Assembly (NCBI RefSeq): GCF_035084215.1
Contig: NC_090335.1
Span: forward strand, 54,188,001 to 54,252,000
Direction of reading: 5' to 3'
Length of the DNA: 64,000 bases
Origin: Heptranchias perlo
Lineage: Eukaryota
Within the stretch, counting starts at the first letter, position 1; the number at the start of each line of letters is the position of its first letter. Under the pieces are notes generated by a model, which saw nothing but the letters and a program-made list of their open reading frames with translations, did not search any database and was not told where the DNA came from. Positions 6,001 through 61,900 of the stretch are shown one piece after another. The position numbers were made by a program, and so were the translations under genes.

Positions 6001-6213
6001 AACTCTTCTTTACTCTAGTGCTATTTGTCCCTCCCAGTCCTCTGTGTACTTGTTTCTCCTCTCTGGTTCTCCTTTCATCCTGGTGCCCATCTCCCTGCCA
6101 AATTAGTTTAAAACGTCCCCCACAGCACTAGTTAACATCCCCATGAGAGCATTGGTCCCTGCTGCATTGAAGTGCAACTTGTCCATCTTGAACAGATCCC
6201 TCCTGCCCAGAAC
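3079..6213 (-). mobile_element. Decayed CR1 LINE (ORF1 3' end plus near-complete ORF2, many frameshifts)
   Basis: ORF pieces 3049-5063 carry DFQKAFD, GSVLGPLFFLIYVNDL, FADDTK, LVRPQLEYC; 3' microsatellite tail at ~3075-3112; TAGT at both junctions with the L2 host. Confidence 0.9.
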
Positions 6214-19546: not shown

Positions 19547-19909
19547 CTTCCACTGTTAGGTGCGTGCCTTTACCTTTTGCTGTTTGTGTAGGCGGAGGTA
19601 TTTCAATAGAAACCTTGCAGAAGTAAATGTCAGAGTCATTTAAATGAAGATCGTAGATTACTAAAGATGAGGAGTTTGTTGAGAGGTCCAGTGTAATGTT
19701 AACACGTTCTGTACAATCCCGGAAAGCAGTAAAATTAGCTTTATTTTCTGTAAGTTGACACAACATTTGTGCACTGGTGTTTCTTTTCCATGCAATCCTC
19801 AACTGTTCAGCATCTGTATACTTGTATGAACAGTTTATTTGTGCTGTTTCCCCTTTCAATATTCTGATCTCTGATGGTGTCTGGTAGACAGTTAGGTTTT
19901 TGCTTTTCA
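19547..19909 (-). CDS. IgSF receptor V-set exon (germline-joined VJ type; CD28/CTLA-4/CD28H(TMIGD2)-like)
   Basis: ttcttcag|TG AAA AGC...GTG GAA G|gtgagt; 363 nt, phase 1/1; B-strand Cys (INCS), C-strand Trp (LRIAW), DSDIYFC, extra Cys pair (MLCQ...RDC), FG loop IEIPPP, J-like GKGTHLTV. Confidence 0.93.
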
Positions 19910-20136
19910 CTGAAGAAAAAAATAAAAAGGATTACATAAGAACATAAGAACATAAGAAATTGGAGCAGGAGTAGGCCAATCGGCCCCTCGAGCCTGCTCC
20001 GCCATTTAATAAGATCATGGCTGATCTGATCCCAACCACAAATCTAAAGAACACAAGAAGTCGGAGCAGGACCCGGCCACGTAGCCCCTGGGCCCTCTCC
20101 GCCACCCACAGGGCATTGACCGATCCGAACTCAGCT

Positions 20137-23085
20137 TCATGTCCAATTTCCTGCCCGCTCCCCATAACCCCTAATTCCCTTTACTTCGAGGAAACTGTCT
20201 ATTTCTGTTTTAAATTTATCTAATGATGTAGCTTCCACAGCTTCCTGGGGCAGCATATTCCACAGACCTACCACCCTCTGAGTGAAGAAGTTTCTCCTCA
20301 TCTCAGTTTTGAAAGAGCAGCCCCTTATTCTAAGATTATGCCCCCTAGTTCTAGTTTCACCCATCTTTGGGAACATCCTTACTGCATCCACCCGATCAAG
20401 ACCCCTCACAATCTTATATGTTTCAATAAGATCGCCTCTCATTCTTCTGAACTCCAATGAGTAGAGTCCCAATCTACTCAACCTCTCCTCATATGTGCGC
20501 CCCCTCATCCCCGGGATTAACCGAGTGAACCTTCTTTGTACTGCCTCGAGAGCAAGTATGTCTTTTCTTAAGTATGGAGACCAAAACTGTATGCAGTATT
20601 CCAGGTGCGGTCTCACCAATACCTTATATAACTGCAGCAATACCTCCCTGTTTTTATATTCTATCCCCCTAGCAATAAAAGCCAACATTCCGTTGGCTTT
20701 CTTGATCACCTGCTGCACCTGCATACCAACTTTTTGATTTTCTTGCACTAGGACCCCCAGATCCCTTTGTACTGCAGTACTTTCCAGTCTCTCGCCATTA
20801 AGAAAATAACTTGCTCTCTGATTTTTCCTGCCAAAGTGCATAACCTCACATTTTCCAATATTATATTGCATCTGCCAAATCTCCGCCCACTCACCCAGCC
20901 TGTCTATATCCCCTTGCAGGTTTTTTATGTCCTCCTCACTCTCTACTTTCCCTCCCATCTTTGTATCATCTGCAAATTTTGATATGTTGCACTCGGTCCC
21001 CTCCTCCAAATCGTTAATATAGATTGTAAAGAGTTGGGGACCCAGCACCGACCCCTGTGGAACACCACTGGTTACTGGTTGCCAGTCCGAAAATGAACCA
21101 TTTATCCCAACTCTCTGCTTCCTGTTTGATAACCAATCCTCCACCCATGCCAGAATATTACCCCCAATCCCGTGATTTTTTATCTTAAGTAATAATCTTT
21201 CATGTGGCACCTTGTCGAACGCCTTCTGGAAGTCTAAATACACCACGTCCACTGGTTCCCCTTTATCCACCCTATACGTTATATCCTCGAAGAACTCAAG
21301 CAAATTTGTCAGACATGACTTCCCCTTCATGAAGCCATGCTGACTTTGTCCTATTAAATTATGCTTATCTAAATGTTCCGTTACTGTCTCCTTAATAATA
21401 GACTCCAAAATTTTACCCACCACAGATGTTAAGCTAACTGGCCTATAATTTCCAGCCTTCTGCCTACTACCCTTTTTAAACAACGGTGTTACATTAGCAG
21501 TTTTCCAATCAGCCGGGACCTCTCCTGAGTCCAGGGAATTTTGGAAAACTATCACCAAAGCATCCACAATCCCCACTGCCACTTCCCTCAAGACCCTAGG
21601 ATGGAAGCCATCAGGTCCAGGGGATTTATCCGCCTTGAGTCCCATTATTTTACTGAGTACCATCTCCTGAGTGATTTTAATCGTATTTAGCTCCTCCCCC
21701 CCGAGAGTCCCCTGTTTGTCCAGTGTTGGGATATTCTTAGTGTCCTCTACTGTAAAGACTGAAACAAAATATTTGTTCAGCATTTTTGCCATCTCCATGT
21801 TTCCCACCATTAATTTCCCGGTCTCATCCTCTAAGGGACCTATGTTTGCCTTAGCCACCCTTTTTCTTTTTATATAACTATAGAAACTCTTGCTATCTGT
21901 TTTTATATTTTTTGCTAATTTCTTTTCATAATCTAACTTCCCTTTCTTAATCAATCCTTTAGTTACTTTTTGCTGTCTTTTGAAGAATTCCCAATCTTCT
22001 ATCCTCCCACTAAGTTTGGCTACCTTATATGTCCTTGTTTTTAGTCGGATACTATCCTTGATTTCTTTACTTAGCCACGGGTGGCTGTCATTTCTTTTAC
22101 ACCCTTTTTTCCTCAGTGGAATATATTTATTTTGAAAGTTGTAAAATAACTCCCTAAATGAACACCACTGCTCATGTACCGTCTTACCCTTTAATCTATT
22201 TTCCCAGTCCACTTTAATCAATTCCGCTCTCATACCATCATAGTCTCCTTTATTCAAGCTCAGTACGCTTGTTTGAGAATCAACCTTCTCACCCTCTAAT
22301 TGGATATGGAATTCAACCATGTTGTGGTCGCTCGTTCCAAGGGGATCCTTAACTAGGACATTATTAATTAATCCTGACTCATTACACAGGACCAGGTCCA
22401 AGGTTGCCTGCCCCCTTGTAGGATCAGTTACATACTGCTCAAGAAATCCATCCCTGATGCACTCAATGAACTCGTCCTCAAGGCTGCTCTGCCCAATTTG
22501 ATTTGTCCAGTTAATATGATAATTAAAATCCCCCATAATTATGGCTGTTCCCTTATTACATGCCCCGACTATCTCCTGATTAATACTTCTTCCAGCAGAG
22601 TTGCAACTATTAGGAGGCCTATATACTACGCCCACTAATGTTTTTTTTCCCTTATTATTCCTTATCTCCACCCAAACTGTTTCATTATCTTGATGCTTTG
22701 TCCCAATATCATTTCTCTGTATTACAGTGATTCCTTCCTTTATTAACATAGCCACCCCACCTCCCCTTCCTTCCTGCCTGTCCTTCCTGATTGTTAAATA
22801 CCCTGGCATATTTAATTCCCAGTCGTTGTCACCCTGCAGCCATGTTTCTGTAATGGCCACAAGATCATACCCATACGTAGTTATTTGTGCCGTTAACTCG
22901 TCCATTTTATTACGAATGCTACGTGCATTCAGATAAAGAACTTTCAAATCTGTTTTGTGACGCTTAGTTCCTGCTTTTTCCTTTTTTAACACTTTACCTA
23001 TTACTCCATACCTTCTGTCCCTTCCTGTTACGCTTTCCTCTCTCTCCCTGCTCAGGTTCCCAACCCCCTGCCACTTTAGTTTAAA
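20137..23085 (-). CDS. CR1 ORF2: APE endonuclease plus reverse transcriptase (open frame extends to the slippery site at 23085)
   Basis: 951-aa ORF 20137..22992 (GTG start) plus 31 stop-free upstream codons; LYLNARS, ITETW, YRPP, GDFN, SDH; DFQKAFD, GVPQGSVLGP, FADD. Confidence 0.95.
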   Translation of the reverse strand, partial: FKLKWQGVGNLSREREESVTGRDRRYGVIGKVLKKEKAGTKRHKTDLKVLYLNARSIRNKMDELTAQITTYGYDLVAITETWLQGDNDWELNMPGYLTIRKDRQEGRGGGVAMLIKEGITVIQRNDIGTKHQDNETVWVEIRNNKGKKTLVGVVYRPPNSCNSAGRSINQEIVGACNKGTAIIMGDFNYHINWTNQIGQSSLEDEFIECIRDGFLEQYVTDPTRGQATLDLVLCNESGLINNVLVKDPLGTSDHNMVEFHIQLEGEKVDSQTSVLSLNKGDYDGMRAELIKVDWENRLKGKTVHEQWCSFRELFYNFQNKYIPLRKKGCKRNDSHPWLSKEIKDSIRLKTRTYKVAKLSGRIEDWEFFKRQQKVTKGLIKKGKLDYEKKLAKNIKTDSKSFYSYIKRKRVAKANIGPLEDETGKLMVGNMEMAKMLNKYFVSVFTVEDTKNIPTLDKQGTLGGEELNTIKITQEMVLSKIMGLKADKSPGPDGFHPRVLREVAVGIVDALVIVFQNSLDSGEVPADWKTANVTPLFKKGSRQKAGNYRPVSLTSVVGKILESIIKETVTEHLDKHNLIGQSQHGFMKGKSCLTNLLEFFEDITYRVDKGEPVDVVYLDFQKAFDKVPHERLLLKIKNHGIGGNILAWVEDWLSNRKQRVGINGSFSDWQPVTSGVPQGSVLGPQLFTIYINDLEEGTECNISKFADDTKMGGKVESEEDIKNLQGDIDRLGEWAEIWQMQYNIGKCEVMHFGRKNQRASYFLNGERLESTAVQRDLGVLVQENQKVGMQVQQVIKKANGMLAFIARGIEYKNREVLLQLYKVLVRPHLEYCIQFWSPYLRKDILALEAVQRRFTRLIPGMRGRTYEERLSRLGLYSLEFRRMRGDLIETYKIVRGLDRVDAVRMFPKMGETRTRGHNLRIRGCSFKTEMRRNFFTQRVVGLWNMLPQEAVEATSLDKFKTEIDSFLEVKGIRGYGERAGNWT

Positions 23086-24026
23086 CCCTCCCCAACAGCA
23101 CTAGCAAACACTCCTCCTAGGACAGCGGTCCCGGCCCTGCCCAGGTGCAGACCGTCCGGTTTGTACTGGTCCCACCTCCCCCAGAACCGTTTCCAGTGTC
23201 CCAGGAATTTGAATCCCTCCCCCTTGCACCATTCCTCTAGCCACGTATTCATTTGAAATATCCTCCTATTTCTACTCTGACTAGCACGTGGCACTGGCAG
23301 CAATCCTGAGATTACTACCTTTGAGGTCCTATTTTTTAATTTACCTCCTAACTCCCTATATTCTGCTTTTAGGACCTCATCCCCTTTTTTACCTATATCG
23401 TTGGTGCCTATGTGCACCACGACAGCTGGCTGTTCGCCCTCCCCCTCCAAAATGTTCTGTAGCCGCTCCGAGACATCCTTGATCCTTGCACCAGGGAGGC
23501 AACACACCATCCTGGAGTCTCGGTTGCGGCCGCAGAAACGCCTGTCTATTCCCCTTACAATTGAGTCCCCTATCACTATAGCTCTGCCACTCTTTTTCCT
23601 CCCAGCCTGTGCAGCAGAGCTACCCGTGGTGCCAGGAAGTTGGCTGCTGCTGCCTTCCCCTGATAAGTCATCCCCCCCAACAGCATCCAAAGTGGCATAT
23701 CTGTTTGAGAGGGGGATGGCCACAGGGGACCCCTGCACTACCTGCCTGCATCTCTTACTCTTCCTGGTGGTCACCCATTCACTTCCTGCCTGTATACCCT
23801 TTACCTGCGGTGTGACCAACTCGCTAAACGTGCTATCCACGAGTTTCTCTGCATCGCGGATGCTCCACAGTGAGTCCACCCGCAGCTCCAGCTCCGAGAT
23901 ACGATCGGTCAGTAGCTGCAGGTGGACACACTTCCCGCACACATGGTCGGCAGGGACACTGGTAGTGTCCATGACTTCCCACATCTTGCAGGAGGAGCAT
24001 ATCACGGGTGCGAGGTCTGCTGCCAT
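23076..24026 (-). CDS. CR1 ORF1: zinc finger/leucine zipper plus SGNH esterase-like domain
   Basis: CSSC...CGKC finger, heptad leucines, IGDSIVRG, HIGTND and DGLHL motifs; 316 aa, intact. Confidence 0.93.
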   Translation of the reverse strand: MAADLAPVICSSCKMWEVMDTTSVPADHVCGKCVHLQLLTDRISELELRVDSLWSIRDAEKLVDSTFSELVTPQVKGIQAGSEWVTTRKSKRCRQVVQGSPVAIPLSNRYATLDAVGGDDLSGEGSSSQLPGTTGSSAAQAGRKKSGRAIVIGDSIVRGIDRRFCGRNRDSRMVCCLPGARIKDVSERLQNILEGEGEQPAVVVHIGTNDIGKKGDEVLKAEYRELGGKLKNRTSKVVISGLLPVPRASQSRNRRIFQMNTWLEEWCKGEGFKFLGHWKRFWGRWDQYKPDGLHLGRAGTAVLGGVFASAVGEGLN

Positions 24027-24185
24027 GACTTGCCTTAGCTGAGTTACCCCTTTTAAATTATGTTGAAATTAGAAAATGTTAACTATACTAGGGACCTAGG
24101 TTCACTAAAAAAAAAACACTATCTGCTATAAAACCTGCAGATCTTCCCTTTCTTATTACTTTACTTACAGTAAAATGGTAGAAAT

Positions 24186-24330
24186 ACTCACCTGAACCTA
24201 CTCACCAATCAGCTGCCTCCCCTGTGCCGCGTCACTTTCTGACTGGTGACGTCACCCCGAACTGCCGCTGGTCTCAGAGTCTCGCTCTCAGAGTAAGCTC
24301 TGGTCTCGCTCTCTCCGCGCTGTTTATATC
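24186..24330 (-). promoter_or_regulatory. Candidate internal promoter and splice donors of the CR1 5' UTR
   Basis: Perfect CRE TGACGTCA at 24247-24254 inside the GGTGACGTCACC palindrome; CCAAT at ~24205; GATATAAA at ~24323-24330; two G|GTGAGT donors at ~24191 and ~24205. Confidence 0.45.
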
Positions 24331-24433
24331 CCCGCTCTGGTCTCGCTCTCTCCCGCCGCTCACCGCTCTCAGGTCCACTACCGCTCTGCAAGAAAAGCAA
24401 GGCAAAGCAGCACCTCCTTCCCCCACTTTACCT

Positions 24434-27400
24434 AACTCCCACACGTACCGAACTCTCAGCACACTGTGTAATATCCGCACACCGTGCAGTCCGCACTGAC
24501 AGGCCCCTGTATTTCTACAGTTGAGACTCAGATGAGTCAGGCCTGCCCCACCTTCAGGGACCAATTGAATCTAGCTGACCAATTAACTTGCTACAGCAGC
24601 TCTCTGCTGAAGCCTGACAGAAACTTAGAAATTTAAACTTTTAAATTGACCTTAAACAGTTGAAGCAATATGCACTAGATTTAAAGAGATTAACCCTTCA
24701 ACTCCCACACCTGACAGAAACTTAGAAATTTAAACTTTTAAATTGACCTTAAACAGTTGAAGCAATATGCACTAGATTTAAAGAGATCAACCCTTCAACT
24801 CCCACACCTGACAGAAACTTAGAAATTTAAACTTTTAAATTGACCTTAAACAGTTGAAGCAATATGCACTAGATTTAAAGAGATCAACCCTTCAACTCCC
24901 ACACGTACCGAACTCTCAGCACACTGTGTAATATCCGCACACCGTGCAGTCCGCACTGACAGGCCCCTGTATTTCTACAGTTGAGACTCAGATGAGTCAG
25001 GCCTGCCCCACCTTCAGGGACCAATTGAATCTAGCTGACCAATTAACTTGCTACAGCAGCTCTCTGCTGAAGCCTGACAGAAACTTAGAAATTTAAACTT
25101 TTAAATTGACCTTAAACAGTTGAAGCAATATGCACTAGATTTAAAGAGATTAACCCTTCAACTCCCACACCTGACAGAAACTTAGAAATTTAAACTTTTA
25201 AATTGACCTTAAACAGTTGAAGCAATATGCACTAGATTTAAAGAGATCAACCCTTCAACTCCCACACCTGACAGAAACTTAGAAATTTAAACTTTTAAAT
25301 TGACCTTAAACAGTTGAAGCAATATGCACTAGATTTAAAGAGATCAACCCTTCAACTCCCACACGTACCGAACTCTCAGCACACTGTGTAATATCCGCAC
25401 ACCGTGCAGTCCGCACTGACAGGCCCCTGTATTTCTACAGTTGAGACTCAGATGAGTCAGGCCTGCCCCACCTTCAGGGACCAATTGAATCTAGCTGACC
25501 AATTAACTTGCTACAGCAGCTCTCTGCTGAAGCCTGACAGAAACTTAGAAATTTAAACTTTTAAATTGACCTTAAACAGTTGAAGCAATATGCACTAGAT
25601 TTAAAGAGATTAACCCTTCAACTCCCACACCTGACAGAAACTTAGAAATTTAAACTTTTAAATTGACCTTAAACAGTTGAAGCAATATGCACTAGATTTA
25701 AAGAGATCAACCCTTCAACTCCCACACCTGACAGAAACTTAGAAATTTAAACTTTTAAATTGACCTTAAACAGTTGAAGCAATATGCACTAGATTTAAAG
25801 AGATCAACCCTTCAACTCCCACACGTACCGAACTCTCAGCACACTGTGTAATATCCGCACACCGTGCAGTCCGCACTGACAGGCCCCTGTATTTCTACAG
25901 TTGAGACTCAGATGAGTCAGGCCTGCCCCACCTTCAGGGACCAATTGAATCTAGCTGACCAATTAACTTGCTACAGCAGCTCTCTGCTGAAGCCTGACAG
26001 AAACTTAGAAATTTAAACTTTTAAATTGACCTTAAACAGTTGAAGCAATATGCACTAGATTTAAAGAGATTAACCCTTCAACTCCCACACCTGACAGAAA
26101 CTTAGAAATTTAAACTTTTAAATTGACCTTAAACAGTTGAAGCAATATGCACTAGATTTAAAGAGATCAACCCTTCAACTCCCACACCTGACAGAAACTT
26201 AGAAATTTAAACTTTTAAATTGACCTTAAACAGTTGAAGCAATATGCACTAGATTTAAAGAGATCAACCCTTCAACTCCCACACGTACCGAACTCTCAGC
26301 ACACTGTGTAATATCCGCACACCGTGCAGTCCGCACTGACAGGCCCCTGTATTTCTACAGTTGAGACTCAGATGAGTCAGGCCTGCCCCACCTTCAGGGA
26401 CCAATTGAATCTAGCTGACCAATTAACTTGCTACAGCAGCTCTCTGCTGAAGCCTGACAGAAACTTAGAAATTTAAACTTTTAAATTGACCTTAAACAGT
26501 TGAAGCAATATGCACTAGATTTAAAGAGATTAACCCTTCAACTCCCACACCTGACAGAAACTTAGAAATTTAAACTTTTAAATTGACCTTAAACAGTTGA
26601 AGCAATATGCACTAGATTTAAAGAGATCAACCCTTCAACTCCCACACCTGACAGAAACTTAGAAATTTAAACTTTTAAATTGACCTTAAACAGTTGAAGC
26701 AATATGCACTAGATTTAAAGAGATCAACCCTTCAACTCCCACACGTACCGAACTCTCAGCACACTGTGTAATATCCGCACACCGTGCAGTCCGCACTGAC
26801 AGGCCCCTGTATTTCTACAGTTGAGACTCAGATGAGTCAGGCCTGCCCCACCTTCAGGGACCAATTGAATCTAGCTGACCAATTAACTTGCTACAGCAGC
26901 TCTCTGCTGAAGCCTGACAGAAACTTAGAAATTTAAACTTTTAAATTGACCTTAAACAGTTGAAGCAATATGCACTAGATTTAAAGAGATTAACCCTTCA
27001 ACTCCCACACCTGACAGAAACTTAGAAATTTAAACTTTTAAATTGACCTTAAACAGTTGAAGCAATATGCACTAGATTTAAAGAGATCAACCCTTCAACT
27101 CCCACACCTGACAGAAACTTAGAAATTTAAACTTTTAAATTGACCTTAAACAGTTGAAGCAATATGCACTAGATTTAAAGAGATCAACCCTTCAACTCCC
27201 ACACGTACCGAACTCTCAGCACACTGTGTAATATCCGCACACCGTGCAGTCCGCACTGACAGGCCCCTGTATTTCTACAGTTGAGACTCAGATGAGTCAG
27301 GCCTGCCCCACCTTCAGGGACCAATTGAATCTAGCTGACCAATTAACTTGCTACAGCAGCTCTCTGCTGAAGCCTGACAGAAACTTAGAAATTTAAACTT

Positions 27401-27836
27401 TTAAATTGACCTTAAACAGTTGAAGCAATATGCACTAGATTTAAAGAGATTAACCCTTCAACTCCCACACCTGACAGAAACTTAGAAATTTAAACTTTTA
27501 AATTGACCTTAAACAGTTGAAGCAATATGCACTAGATTTAAAGAGATTAACCCTTCAACTCCCACACCTGACAGAAACTTAGAAATTTAAACTTTTAAAT
27601 TGACCTTAAACAGTTGAAGCAATATGCACTAGATTTAAAGAGATCAACCCTTCAACTCCCACACCTGACAGAAACTTAGAAATTTAAACTTTTAAATTGA
27701 CCTTAAACAGTTGAAGCAATATGCACTAGATTTAAAGAGATCAACCCTTCAACTCCCACACGTACCGAACTCTCAGCACACTGTGTAATATCCGCACACC
27801 GTGCAGTCCGCACTGACAGGCCCCTGTATTTCTACA
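24434..27836. repeat. Higher-order tandem array: 460-bp unit = 169-bp segment + 3 x 97-bp subunits; 7 units plus a partial 8th
   Basis: acacgtaccg recurs at 24441, 24901, 25361, 25821, 26281, 26741, 27201 and 27758 (7th unit is 557 bp with 4 subunits); subunits start at 24614, 24711, 24808. Confidence 0.97.
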
Positions 27837-28527
27837 TTAACTGTATACAATCTCCTATCAGCATTGAATATATTCTCTGATAAATGTAAAGCTTTGTTAG
27901 TAGTTTGTGATTCAGTGGGAACCAGGGGGTTAATTGGGTCGGTATAAAGACCAATGTGAATCTTTTCCCCTGAAAGGAGGAAAAACTGTCTGGATGTATT
28001 GATGATTTAATACTTCCCAGCACCAATCTGTTGAAAGAAATCTGTGCAAAGCCATTTCGAAAGTTTTAAAATTTAATAACCTCCTTTCTTCAAATCATTG
28101 CTTACCCTTGCATGATTTTTAAAATGTTTTTCTTGTTCTCAGCTCATTATTTTCATTGTTTTGTCCCTCATAGAGCCTGCCTTTCTTTGCAGTCTCTGCT
28201 GCCTTCCCTGCCCTCTCCTTATTTACACTCCATATGATACACAATAAAAATGGGCTTTGCTACTCGTGTTACTGGAAAGAAAGAAAGAACTTGCATTCAT
28301 ATAGACATGAATACAAAGCTGATTTTGAATACATGGCATTTTAACGTTATTTGCAACTAATACCTGTGGTAGAGCCCATTTCTATGCAGTGATTTGTAAA
28401 GTTAAAGCAAGACACATTTTTGTTTGCCAGTAGGCAAAAGCAACATTTTTCTTTTCTTTGTCATCCCAATGCAATTAATAATGACTGCAGTTACTTTTGC
28501 CTGTTGTTAGATTTGAATTAGTCTTAC

Positions 28528-28591
28528 CTGCAATTAGAAAGAAGTGAAGCAAAACACAAAGTTTGATCCCCTGTGCTCCCAGAAGTAACAT
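28528..28591 (-). CDS. IgSF receptor leader (signal peptide) exon
   Basis: ATG TTA CTT...ATT GCA G|gtaaga encodes MLLLGAQGIKLCVLLHFFLIA; the phase-1 donor fits the V-exon acceptor; ~0.7 kb from V once the CR1 is removed. Confidence 0.75.
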
Positions 28592-28684
28592 TTCATTTGT
28601 CTCATTCTGAAGATAGGAGAATAGAAATCAGTAACTTTGACGAAAAAGGAAATACTTTGTTAGTATGTTAGGACAATATCATTT

Positions 28685-58945: not shown

Positions 58946-61900
58946 ATAGAATCATAGAATCATTGAAAGGTTACAGCACGGAAGGAGGCCACTCGGCCCA
59001 TCGAGTTCACGCCGGCTCTATGCAAGAGCAAGCCAACTAGTCCCACTCCCCCACCCTATCCCCATAGCCCAGAATTTTTTTTCCTTTCAAGTACTTATCC
59101 AGTTCCTTTTTGAAGGCCATGATTGAGTCTGCCTCCTCAGGCAGTGCATTCCAGATCCTAATCGCTCGCTGTGTAAAAAAGTTTTTCCTCATGTCACCTT
59201 TGGTTCTTTTGTCAATCACCTTAAACTTATATCCTCTGGATTTTGATCCTTCCGCCAATGGGAACAGTTTCTCTCTATCTACTCTGTCTAGGTCCTTCAT
59301 GATTTTAAATATCTCTATCAAATCTCCTCGCAACCATCTCTGTTCCAAGGAGAACAACCCCAGCTTCTCCAGTCTATCCACATACTAAAGTTCCTCATCC
59401 CTGGAATCATTCCAGTAAATCTCTTCTGCACTGTCTCTAAGGCCTTCACATCTTTCCTGAAGTGCAGTGCCCAGAACTGGGACACAATATTCCAGTTGTG
59501 GCCGAACCAGCGTTTTATAAAGGTTCACCATGACTTCCATACTTTTGTATTCTATGCCTCTATTTATAAAGCCCAGGATCCTGTATGCTTTTTTAACCGC
59601 TTTCTCAACCTGCCCTGCCACCTTCAACAATTTGTGCACATATACCCCCAGATCAAACCAGTGGACGTAGTGTATTTAGACTTCCAGAAGGCATTCGACA
59701 AGGTGCCACATAAAAGATTATTGCTTAAGATAAAAAAAATCATGGGATTGGGGGTAATATTCTGGCATGGGTGGAGGATTGGTTATCTAACAGGAAGCAG
59801 AGAGTTGGGATAAATGGTTCATTCTCAGACTGGCAACCAGTAACCAGTGGTGTTCCACAGGGGTCGGTGCTGGGTCCCCAACTCTTTACAATCTATATTA
59901 ACGATTTGGAGGAGGGGACCGAGTGCAACATATCAAAATTTGCAGATGATACAAAGATGGGAGGGAAAGTAGAGAGTGAGGAGGACATAAAAAACCTACA
60001 AGGGGCTATAGACAGGCTGGGTGAGTGGGCGGAGATTTGGCAGATGCAATATAATATTGGAAAATGTGAGGTTATGCACTTTGGCAGGAAAAATCAGAGA
60101 ACAAGTTATTATCTTAATGGCGAGAAACTGGAAAGTACTGCAGTACAAAGGGATCTGGGGGTCCTTGTGCAAGAAAATCAAAAGGTTAGTATGCAGGTGC
60201 AGCAGGTGATCAAGAAGGCCAATGGAATGTTGGCTTTTATTGCTAGGGGGATAGAATATAAAAACAGGGAGGTATTGCTGCAGTTATATAAGGTATTGGT
60301 GAGGCCGCACCTGGAATACTGCATACAGTTTTGGTGTCCACACTTAAGAAAAGACATACTTGCTGTCGAGGCAGTACAAAGAAGGTTCACTCGGTTAATC
60401 CCGGGGATGAGGGGGTGGACATATGAGGAGAGGTTGAGTAGATTGGGACGCTACTCATTGGAGTTCAGAAGAATGAGAGGCGATCTTATTGAAACATATA
60501 AGATTGTGAAGGGGCTTGATCGGGTGGATGCGGTAAGGATGTTCCCAAAGATGGGTGAAACTAGAACGAGGGGGCATAATCTTAGAATAAGGGGCTGCTC
60601 TTTCAAAACTGAGATGAGGAGAAACTTCTTCACTCAGAGGGTAGTAGGTCTGTGGAATTTGCTGCCCCAGGAAGCTGTGGAAGCTACATCATTAAATAAA
60701 TTTAAAACAGAAATAGACAGTTTCCTAGAAGTAAAGGGAATTAGGGGTTACGGGGAGCGGGCAGGAAATTGGACATGAAGCTGAATTCGGATCGGTCAAG
60801 GCCCTGTCGGTGGCGGAGCGGGCCCAGGGGCTGAGTGGCCGGGTCCTGCTCCTACTTCTTGTGTTCTTTAGATTTGTGGTTGGGATCAGACCAGCCATGA
60901 TCTTATTGAATGGCGGAGCAGGCTCGAGGGGCCAATTGGCCTACTCCTGCTCCTATTTCTTATGTTCTTATGTTCTTATATCTCTCTGTTCCAGTACCCC
61001 TTTTAGAGTTGTGCCTTCTAGTTTACATTGTGTTTCCTCGTTCTTCCTACTGAAATGTATCACTTTGTATTTCTCAGCTTTAAATTTCATCTGCCATGTA
61101 TCCGCCCATGCCACCAGCCTCTCTATATCCTCTTGAAGTCGATCACTATCCTCCTCACTGTTTACTACCCTTCCAAGTTTGGTGTCATCTACAAATTTTA
61201 AAATCGTGCCCTGTACACCCAAGTCCAAGTCATTAATATATACCAAGAAAAGCAGTGGTCCCAGCACCGACCCCTGGGGAACATCACTATACACCTCCCT
61301 CCAGTCTGAAAAATAACCGTTCATCGCTTCTCTCTGTTTCCTGTCACTTAGCCAATTCTGTATCCATGTTGCTACTGCCTCCTTTATTCCATGGGCCGCA
61401 ATCTTGATAATAAGCCTACCATGCGGCACTTTATCAAACGCCTTTTGAAAGTCCATATACACCACATCAACTGCATTGCCCTCATCTACACTCCCTGTTA
61501 CCTCATCAAAAAACTCTATCAGGTTAGTTAACACGATTTGCCTTTAACAAATCCGTGCTGGCTTTCCCTAATCAATCCAAACTCATCCAAGTGACTGTTA
61601 ATTCTGTCCTGAATTACCGTTTCTAAAAGTTTCCCCACCACTGAGGTTAAACTGATTGGCCTATAGTTGCTGGGTTTATCCTTACACCCTTTTTTGAATA
61701 AGGGTGTAACATTTGCAATTCTCCAATCCTCTGGCACCACCCCCGTATCTAAGGATGTTTGGAAGATTATGGCCAGCACCTCTGCAATTTCCACCCTTAC
61801 TTCCCACAGCAACCTAGCATGCATCCCATCCGGTCCGGGTGACTTATCTACTCTAAGTATAGCTCGCCTTTCCATTACCTCTTCTTTATCAAATTTTAGC

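Follow-up and report, generated by a model that had tools for sequence, protein, structure and literature searches.

Comparative sequence analysis suggests programmed −1 frameshifting at the ORF1–ORF2 junction of vertebrate CR1 retrotransposons

The closest described parallels to the locus analyzed here are retroviral gag-pol and coronavirus 1a/1b, in which the structural ORF closes with an in-phase X_XXY_YYZ heptamer (U_UUA_AAC in IBV) and the polymerase follows in the −1 frame (PMC5009743). In the arterivirus PRRSV, frameshifting is stimulated by nsp1beta/PCBP acting on CCCANCUCC 11 nt 3′ of the shift site. How LINEs translate ORF2 has been called an open question (PMC3894237). Mammalian L1 and silkworm SART1 resemble CR1 in having a bicistronic RNA with low ORF2 output (PMC5009743, PMC3894237), but their ORF2 is reached by reinitiation, either across a spacer or at a UAAUG stop-start, and the CR1 junction has neither. 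Dictyostelium TRE5-A and TRE3-A are also APE-RT LINEs, and their ORF2 is stated to need a −1 frameshift (PMC5911963), although they differ from CR1 in lineage and in ORF1.

CR1-group elements make up 22–34% of shark and ray genomes (PMC13343379), and their esterase ORF1p has been proposed to bind membranes (PMC13343379, PMC3905857). The same two sources treat ORF1p and ORF2p as separate proteins, and the word "frameshift" does not occur in their main texts. We found no earlier report of a −1 frameshift in CR1 in the literature searched, the coverage of which lies outside the CR1 papers of 1997–2003. From comparative sequence evidence we propose that CR1 ORF2 is very probably translated by programmed −1 frameshifting, which in the copy described below would yield an ORF1–ORF2 fusion of about 1,296 residues.

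We analyzed a 64,000-nt stretch of Heptranchias perlo DNA (the window), in which we identified one full-length CR1 element and one decayed copy:

19934..27836, minus strand: full-length CR1 LINE, both ORFs intact
24434..27836, minus strand: 5′ tandem array in which a 460-bp unit is present about seven times (99% identity), every copy containing 97-bp sub-repeats
24026-23076, minus strand: ORF1, 316 aa, with an N-terminal Cys-rich region and an SGNH esterase
20137..23085, minus strand: ORF2 frame of 982 codons with APE endonuclease and reverse transcriptase (RT), −1 relative to ORF1
19934..20136, minus strand: 3′ UTR, with three 8-bp repeats at its end (19934-19958)
6103..6112, minus strand: junction of a second CR1 copy, divergent and decayed, with the same heptamer and TAA and a −1 frame open for 53 codons

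The esterase was recognized by Pfam (Lipase_GDSL_2 at residues 152–301, E = 2.5e-13), and the ORF1 profile is homologous to the ZfL2-1 ORF1 esterase (PDB 4c1b, E = 1.5e-45). For the APE region, a single-sequence PDB search gave no match and an alignment-based search did. No target-site duplication was seen at 19934..27836. With its SGNH-esterase ORF1, its APE and RT in ORF2 and its 3′ octamer repeats, the element has the features that define the esterase type of the CR1 clade and is an ordinary member of the vertebrate group that shares them (PMC13343379, PMC3905857). In a quick ORF1 esterase tree, it groups with shark and ray proteins.

The junction between the two ORFs of the full-length copy is organized as follows:

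23101..23103, minus strand: TAG stop, 5 codons before the heptamer, that closes the −1 frame
23082..23088, minus strand: second in-phase heptamer, G_GGU_UUA, which other lineages do not conserve
23079..23085, minus strand: slippery heptamer U_UUA_AAC, made up of the last base of a Gly codon and the two final sense codons of ORF1 (Leu and Asn)
23076..23078, minus strand: ORF1 stop TAA, directly 3′ of the heptamer
22942..23079, minus strand: AUG-less linker in the −1 frame, from the heptamer to APE motif I
22918..22941, minus strand: APE endonuclease motif I, upstream of the first AUG (22905)

A first-pass annotation of this DNA had described an ORF1 ending in GGT TTA AAC TAA with a correctly phased heptamer at 23085-23079, a −1 frame open to 20137 and an ORF2 without an AUG before motif I. 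All three points hold for this copy: the sequence reads GAG GGT TTA AAC TAA in X_XXY_YYZ phase, no stop interrupts the −1 frame between 23100 and the terminal one at 20137 (982 codons from the heptamer), and the first in-frame ATG, at 22905, lies 12 codons past the start of motif I, which begins at codon 49. The Asn of motif I is invariant in all nine aligned ORF2s, and we take it to be the counterpart of L1 Asn14, with a catalytic role. The annotation had also placed a Phe at the join of the fusion; under the standard model, a tandem slip would give Leu-Asn followed by Leu-Lys-Trp, and no Phe is expected. It had missed the second heptamer (23088-23082), which overlaps U_UUA_AAC. The two strands of the window contain 331 and 324 X_XXY_YYZ heptamers, or one at about 0.5% of positions, so that a heptamer in a single copy is weak evidence; the case rests on conservation.

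The conservation scan that the first-pass annotation had suggested shows the heptamer and its frame relation to be kept across CR1 lineages. We found NTTAAAC in 14 out of 14 CR1-type junctions (13 with T, 1 with G), which comprise the two window copies and 12 metagenome loci. The motif guided the initial choice of these 12, and a quick tree that took in 9 of them served as a check; the loci are related by descent, and some are decayed. All 12 metagenome loci that reach the ORF1 end carry it, 11 as TTTAAAC and one as GTTAAAC, the G_UUA form being the equine arteritis virus type (PMC5009743). The stop follows directly in 12 of the 14 junctions. The heptamer is fixed at the nucleotide level, and the 60 nt upstream are mostly less than 50% identical between lineages. 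In published CR1-group consensus sequences, 18 of the 22 heptamer-plus-stop matches listed lie at an ORF1 end (12 vertebrate species, read by eye), and none of the 18 matches to six variant spellings does. At the protein level, Leu-Asn is the C-terminus of 85 out of 120 ORF1 homologues, or 85 of the 97 with a recognisable end; among those named are sharks, rays, coelacanth, one teleost, frogs, turtles and squamates. Complete ends are present in 93 of 150 more distant ORF1 representatives, and 59 of these end in Asn (LN 45, GN 8, KN 3). Gln precedes the GN ends in six out of eight cases, which fits G_GGA_AAC, and the KN ends fit A_AAA_AAC, in both cases at the protein level only. These two heptamers and U_UUA_AAC are among the shiftiest for mammalian ribosomes (PMC5009743). 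Glu, Gln, Lys, Met and Trp are scarce before Leu-Asn (2/85), but equally so at positions −6 and −7, and this scarcity thus proves little alone.

As a codon control, we examined the 11 junctions (out of 14) that have no upstream frame break. The terminal codons are fixed (TTA in 11/11, AAC in 11/11), and conserved Leu and Gly positions upstream in the same junctions use mixed codons. Calculated from each element's own codon usage, the per-locus chance of the heptamer codons is 0.003–0.066, and the product over six lineages is 5e-11 if independence is assumed. The heptamer is conserved beyond what the amino acids need.

The downstream ORF lies in the −1 frame at 8 of the 10 loci in which motif I was located, the two exceptions being decayed copies. 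Counted from the heptamer, it stays open over 982 codons in the window copy and over 973 and 1006 codons in loci L003 and L005, respectively; in these three, the 0 frame reaches a stop after 41 codons or fewer and the +1 frame has no open codon at all. Upstream, the −1 frame is closed within 1–5 codons of the heptamer in 11 of the 14 junctions. This layout, in which the two ORFs overlap only briefly and the second can be read in the −1 frame from the heptamer onward, is that of a canonical programmed frameshift site. The linker between heptamer and motif I varies by lineage from 31 to 86 codons. Together, phase, frame and nucleotide-level conservation support the earlier reading that this CR1 would make an ORF1–ORF2 fusion in gag-pol fashion.

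Under termination-reinitiation, whether AUG-independent as in L1 or through UAAUG as in SART1, ribosomes would restart near the ORF1 stop and the conserved sequence would be a reinitiation signal. SART1 ORFs are indeed coupled by UAAUG (PMC3894237), and for ORF2 of mammalian L1 an initiation that does not depend on its AUG has been proposed (PMC5009743), so that the absence of an AUG does not alone exclude this route. Locus L005 even has an in-frame AUG just past the stop, 5 nt after its start. However, only 2 of the 14 junctions have such an AUG in the interval from −20 to +40 nt around the stop (in L041 it is 16 nt before), and no AUG or other start codon near the ORF1 stop is conserved among the 14. 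UGGGA occurs upstream in seven of them, at offsets scattered from −30 to −108, and is absent from the rest; the SART1/TURBS-type signal, an AUG at or near the ORF1 stop with an upstream UGGGA, is absent from the window copy. Reinitiation also leaves the phased shift-site spelling and the Gln-Gly-Asn and Lys-Asn variants unexplained, and we consider it unlikely.

Initiation within the linker, at GUG 22992, CUG 23055 or a lineage-specific AUG reached by internal entry, leaky scanning or a spliced RNA, seems to us very improbable. In-frame near-cognate codons are present, three of seven open linkers contain an in-frame AUG before motif I (L003, L005 and L012), and some ORF2 gene calls begin at linker Met residues, but these start-like codons are conserved neither in position nor in identity, the window copy has no pyrimidine-rich splice acceptor between heptamer and motif I, and the heptamer would be left unexplained. 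We give even less credence to a protein constraint on the C-terminal Leu-Asn that would make the slippery look incidental. The ORF1 alignment does have an invariant terminal Asn and a nearly invariant Leu, but a constraint on the residues is contradicted by the codon test, in which synonymous codons go unused. Moreover, the alignment of the solved ZfL2-1 esterase reaches no further than profile position 314 of 318, ZfL2-1 relatives have other C-terminal ends, and the terminal Asn stands at varying distances from the catalytic motif; the tails of the distant ORF1 representatives differ in length.

To look for a stimulator of the putative frameshift, we compared 12 aligned junctions downstream of the heptamer, which share one feature of conserved position:

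23064..23068, minus strand: G-run at +11 to +15 after the heptamer, candidate stimulator

G is found at +11 and +12 in 12/12, at +13 in 11/12, at +14 in 10/12 and at +15 in 11/12 junctions, with +11 and +14 being wobble positions of the −1 frame; a conserved motif thus lies 11–14 nt downstream, as in the arterivirus/cardiovirus type. The 30 nt after the heptamer contain only 3–23% C. The first-pass annotation had seen a G-rich tract with hairpin or quadruplex potential here: the tract does begin after a 5-nt spacer, but neither structure found support. A local hairpin (−6.5 to −7.9 kcal/mol) has no advantage over shuffled sequences (z −0.5 to −0.8), and a two-tier quadruplex is predicted in 4 of 12 loci, is marginal in the window copy (z 0.42) and clearly beats shuffles only in L005 (z −3.6) and L041 (z −2.6). 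Long-range pairing of the G-tract with a 3′ UTR hairpin likewise found no support, as this site ranked tied third among the best ones in the window copy and outside the top six in L005. The consensus fold of the 12 junctions contains no pairs, and Rfam gave no match on the junction. As the stimulator we tentatively favor the +11 G-run, the neighboring stop codon or both over local folding of the RNA.

Under programmed −1 frameshifting, most ribosomes would finish ORF1 and terminate at the codon directly after Leu-Asn, and a minority would slip back one base on U_UUA_AAC and read the variable linker, the endonuclease and the reverse transcriptase. The slip would set a high ratio of ORF1p to RT and tether the RT to ORF1p, as in gag-pol. 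CR1 shares with gag-pol and 1a/1b a polymerase in the −1 frame, which in the window copy lacks its own start codon, but it is a cellular non-LTR retrotransposon in which folding without an explicit pseudoknot model found no stem-loop or pseudoknot 5–9 nt downstream. Nor did Pfam find a protease domain to cut the fusion, which would probably stay uncleaved. The likeness of CR1 to the arterivirus site, where a short motif without structure stands at a constant spacing of about 11 nt in place of a fold, is one of analogy only, and the CR1 motif differs in being a G-run. It is conceivable, though rather doubtful, that vertebrate CR1 makes its RT solely as an esterase-ORF1 fusion, through a fold-free −1 frameshift stimulated by a host protein or ORF1p on the +11 G-run; one of the most abundant vertebrate retrotransposons would then carry a regulated, arterivirus-like switch.

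If CR1 ORF2 is translated by frameshifting, its actual product would be a fusion carrying the esterase ORF1p, ORF2 annotations beginning at an internal Met would be wrong, and cell-based CR1 assays and RT purifications would require the fused form. A frameshift with a fixed G-run and without a conserved RNA fold would also be of interest to the recoding field.

We also searched other sequence collections. Viral contigs gave no match, and prokaryote genomes gave one weak, irrelevant locus only. A search for longer natively fused proteins gave three matches, with the esterase joined to APE only in P0121. Because a genomic insertion and an annotation correction are indistinguishable here, we did not count as evidence two stingray gene models (P0121 and P0040) in which ORF1 runs straight into the −1 frame at the junction.

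The CR1 under study is an ordinary esterase-type element. Among named proteins, those most similar to its ORF1 come from sawshark (74-77% identity), which makes a shark the probable host. Its junction is built from the following features:

27836-19934, minus strand: full-length intact CR1
24026-23076, minus strand: ORF1, 316 aa, SGNH esterase
23085-23079, minus strand: heptamer T_TTA_AAC, within the ORF1 end GGT TTA AAC TAA

Because ORF1 ends in this way, T_TTA_AAC is in phase with a stop directly 3' of it, bearing out the correctly phased heptamer claimed in the first-pass annotation. The -1 frame was also rightly said to stay open past the heptamer (982 open codons downstream in the window copy), and the first ORF2 AUG to follow APE motif I, which runs from codon 49 with the AUG 12 codons later. 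A start at this AUG would drop an Asn that is invariant in 9/9 aligned ORF2s and that we take to be catalytic. APE and RT both lie in the ORF2 frame, and the -1 frame is shut 5 codons upstream of the heptamer. Slippery heptamers occur at ~0.5% of positions, and one copy alone is therefore weak proof.

An identical heptamer and stop are found at 6112 in a second, divergent and decayed CR1 of the window. In a metagenome scan that took in 80 of 194 confirmed loci, NTTAAAC was present in all 12 loci reaching a CR1-type ORF1 end (11 T, 1 G), the adjoining stop was kept in 10 of these, and, of the 10 loci where motif I was located, 8 had it in the -1 frame, both exceptions being decayed. Since the 12 loci were chosen by motif, their membership was checked on a rapidly built tree with 95 esterase rows, for which three heptamer loci were too short. 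The tree group holding the vertebrate proteins contained nine heptamer loci, five loci ending before the ORF1 stop, and two (L007 and L009) that have an in-frame UGA in place of the heptamer junction and group with the proteins P0118 and P0120. Among the 11 junctions left after excluding L005, L046 and L073 for an upstream frame break, Leu was TTA and Asn was AAC in every case (11/11 each); conserved Leu and Gly positions upstream of the heptamer used mixed codons. The chance of the heptamer codons arising from a locus's own codon usage was 0.003-0.066, and the joint chance over six lineages, given independence, 5e-11. In the consensus sequences of the PMC13343379 supplement, represented by the first 400 letters of each and with a table total that is not countable, heptamer and stop stood at the ORF1 end, by eye, in 18 of 22 displayed matches (halosaur, alligator, bowfin, bullfrog, elephant shark, crocodile, stingray, coelacanth, bearded dragon, sawfish, catshark and dogfish), and six variant heptamer spellings gave 0/18 matches there. 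Contigs from three public runs, one of them possibly the source of the window DNA itself, contain subfamilies that match over 23055-23109 and diverge on both flanks, with no substitution within 23075-23111 among the 40 listed of 121. The junction is real and conserved beyond chance.

At the protein level, 85 of 120 listed ORF1 homologues (85 of the 97 with a recognisable end) terminate in Leu-Asn, the named ones including sharks, rays, coelacanth, teleost, frogs, turtles and squamates. Ten different amino acids precede this terminus, and a T-ending codon is possible for 83/85; Glu, Gln, Lys, Met and Trp are just as scarce at ORF1 positions -6 and -7, so that a T-compatible residue before Leu is weak evidence alone. 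When 50%-identity representatives were searched with a profile, 150 proteins matched. The end is complete in 93 of them, and 59 of these 93 end in Asn (45 LN, 8 GN, 3 KN, 2 SN, 1 EN), a count read from protein sequence alone and biased by a search profile that itself ends in LN. Tail length varies among the distant Asn-ending ORF1s, and Gln precedes Gly in six of the eight GN ends. Gln-Gly-Asn fits coding by G_GGA_AAC and Lys-Asn by A_AAA_AAC, which an excerpt of the Atkins et al. review (PMC5009743) places, with U_UUA_AAC, among the shiftiest sites. The ends seen in distant esterase ORF1s (P0156-P0287), namely Gln-Gly-Asn, Ser/Ala-Lys-Asn or Phe-Phe-Arg/Gly-Phe-Arg, may be other spellings of the shift site. 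One CR1 ORF1 63% identical to that of the intact element (P0006) comes from a 4-kb contig assigned to Pseudomonas aeruginosa, and is probably host contamination of that assembly.

We consider it highly probable that ribosomes shift into the -1 frame at the two final codons of ORF1, which would yield an ORF1-ORF2 fusion of ~1,296 aa (316 + 980) joined as Leu-Asn then Leu-Lys-Trp. In 11 of 14 junctions the -1 frame is closed 1-5 codons ahead of the heptamer, which bars ribosomes from entering ORF2 before that point. Counted against frameshifting are an AUG in 3 of 7 open linkers (heptamer to motif I), the AUGs just past the stop in locus L005 and just ahead of the heptamer in L041, L1 ORF2, thought to start without its AUG (PMC5009743), and the failure to find a canonical stimulator at the junction. 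Reinitiation, which we regard as improbable, leaves the fixed codons in shift-site phase unexplained, as do initiation within the linker, for which we see very little likelihood, and a constraint purely on the protein, whose likelihood is slighter still.

The most likely reading is programmed -1 frameshifting whose 3' signal is unusual in being unstructured. The downstream hairpin and G-quadruplex potential suggested at first pass found little support: folding gives the hairpin a z of only -0.5 to -0.8, and no more than 4/12 loci have a predicted two-tier quadruplex. RNAalifold gave 0 conserved pairs in 12 aligned junctions, Rfam had no match at the junction, and long-range pairing with the 3' UTR does not stand out. 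A G-run begins exactly +11 from the heptamer in 11/12 loci, with G at +11/+12/+13/+14/+15 in 12/12/11/10/11 of 12, after a variable +4 to +10. Two of its conserved positions are wobble positions of the -1 frame, and its conservation may partly stem from selection for Gly in the linker. As an analogy only, its position matches the 11-14 nt spacing of protein-stimulated frameshifts in arteriviruses and cardioviruses.

Judging from sequence, CR1 would work like retroviral gag-pol and coronavirus 1a/1b, sharing heptamer, frame relation and conservation, but no 3' structure like theirs was found. Overlap of the ORFs may already be remarked on in Repbase or by Kapitonov and Jurka 2003, Haas et al. 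1997 or Kajikawa et al. 1997. The full-text papers searched yielded no report of a -1 frameshift for CR1, and the excerpts of PMC13343379, PMC3894237, PMC4120745, PMC11835228, PMC2817409, PMC11303007, PMC4255032, PMC5006619, PMC3905857 and PMC5009743 hold no such statement. In excerpts of the respective papers, a -1 frameshift is stated for the LINEs TRE5-A and TRE3-A (PMC5911963), either read-through or a +1 frameshift is put forward for elements of Paramecium (PMC5405496), and certain Penelope-like elements are depicted with a frameshift and a pseudoknot (PMC8557442).

A second tree group of esterase LINEs (loci L020-L080, no named member) has ORF2 in the ORF1 frame, with one stop between. 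Among the loci listed, 32 have motif I, and in 21 of these the first in-frame stop upstream of it is the one that ends the esterase ORF1 (19 UGA-C, 2 UAA-C). This arrangement would fit stop-codon readthrough, but most linkers hold a Met (18/21). As a parallel, it favours the view that fusion proteins are made by esterase LINEs.

The window CR1 lies in sense orientation in a host intron, with a short hydrophobic leader-like exon on one side and an Ig V-set exon on the other:

19548-19904 and about 28525-28595, minus strand: exons flanking CR1

The Ig exon matches Pfam V-set and ICOS V-set, with PDB matches including TCR alpha, CD28, ICOS and CTLA-4. The CR1 3' end lies ~24 nt upstream of the splice acceptor, so the element could interfere with how an immune receptor gene is spliced. 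Its 5' end (24434-27836, minus strand) comprises a unit of 460 bp repeated ~7 times with little variation and itself containing 97-bp repeats, an array that may be an assembly expansion; an excerpt of PMC13343379 mentions arrays of 1-5 subunits for some ORF1-less elements only. A splice-donor-like CAG|GTGAGT occurs in the 5' UTR upstream of ORF1 (24192-24185, minus strand). Elsewhere, the window holds a copy that has lost its 5' part and shares 96% identity with the intact CR1 (59656-60979, plus strand) and numerous older CR1 fragments.
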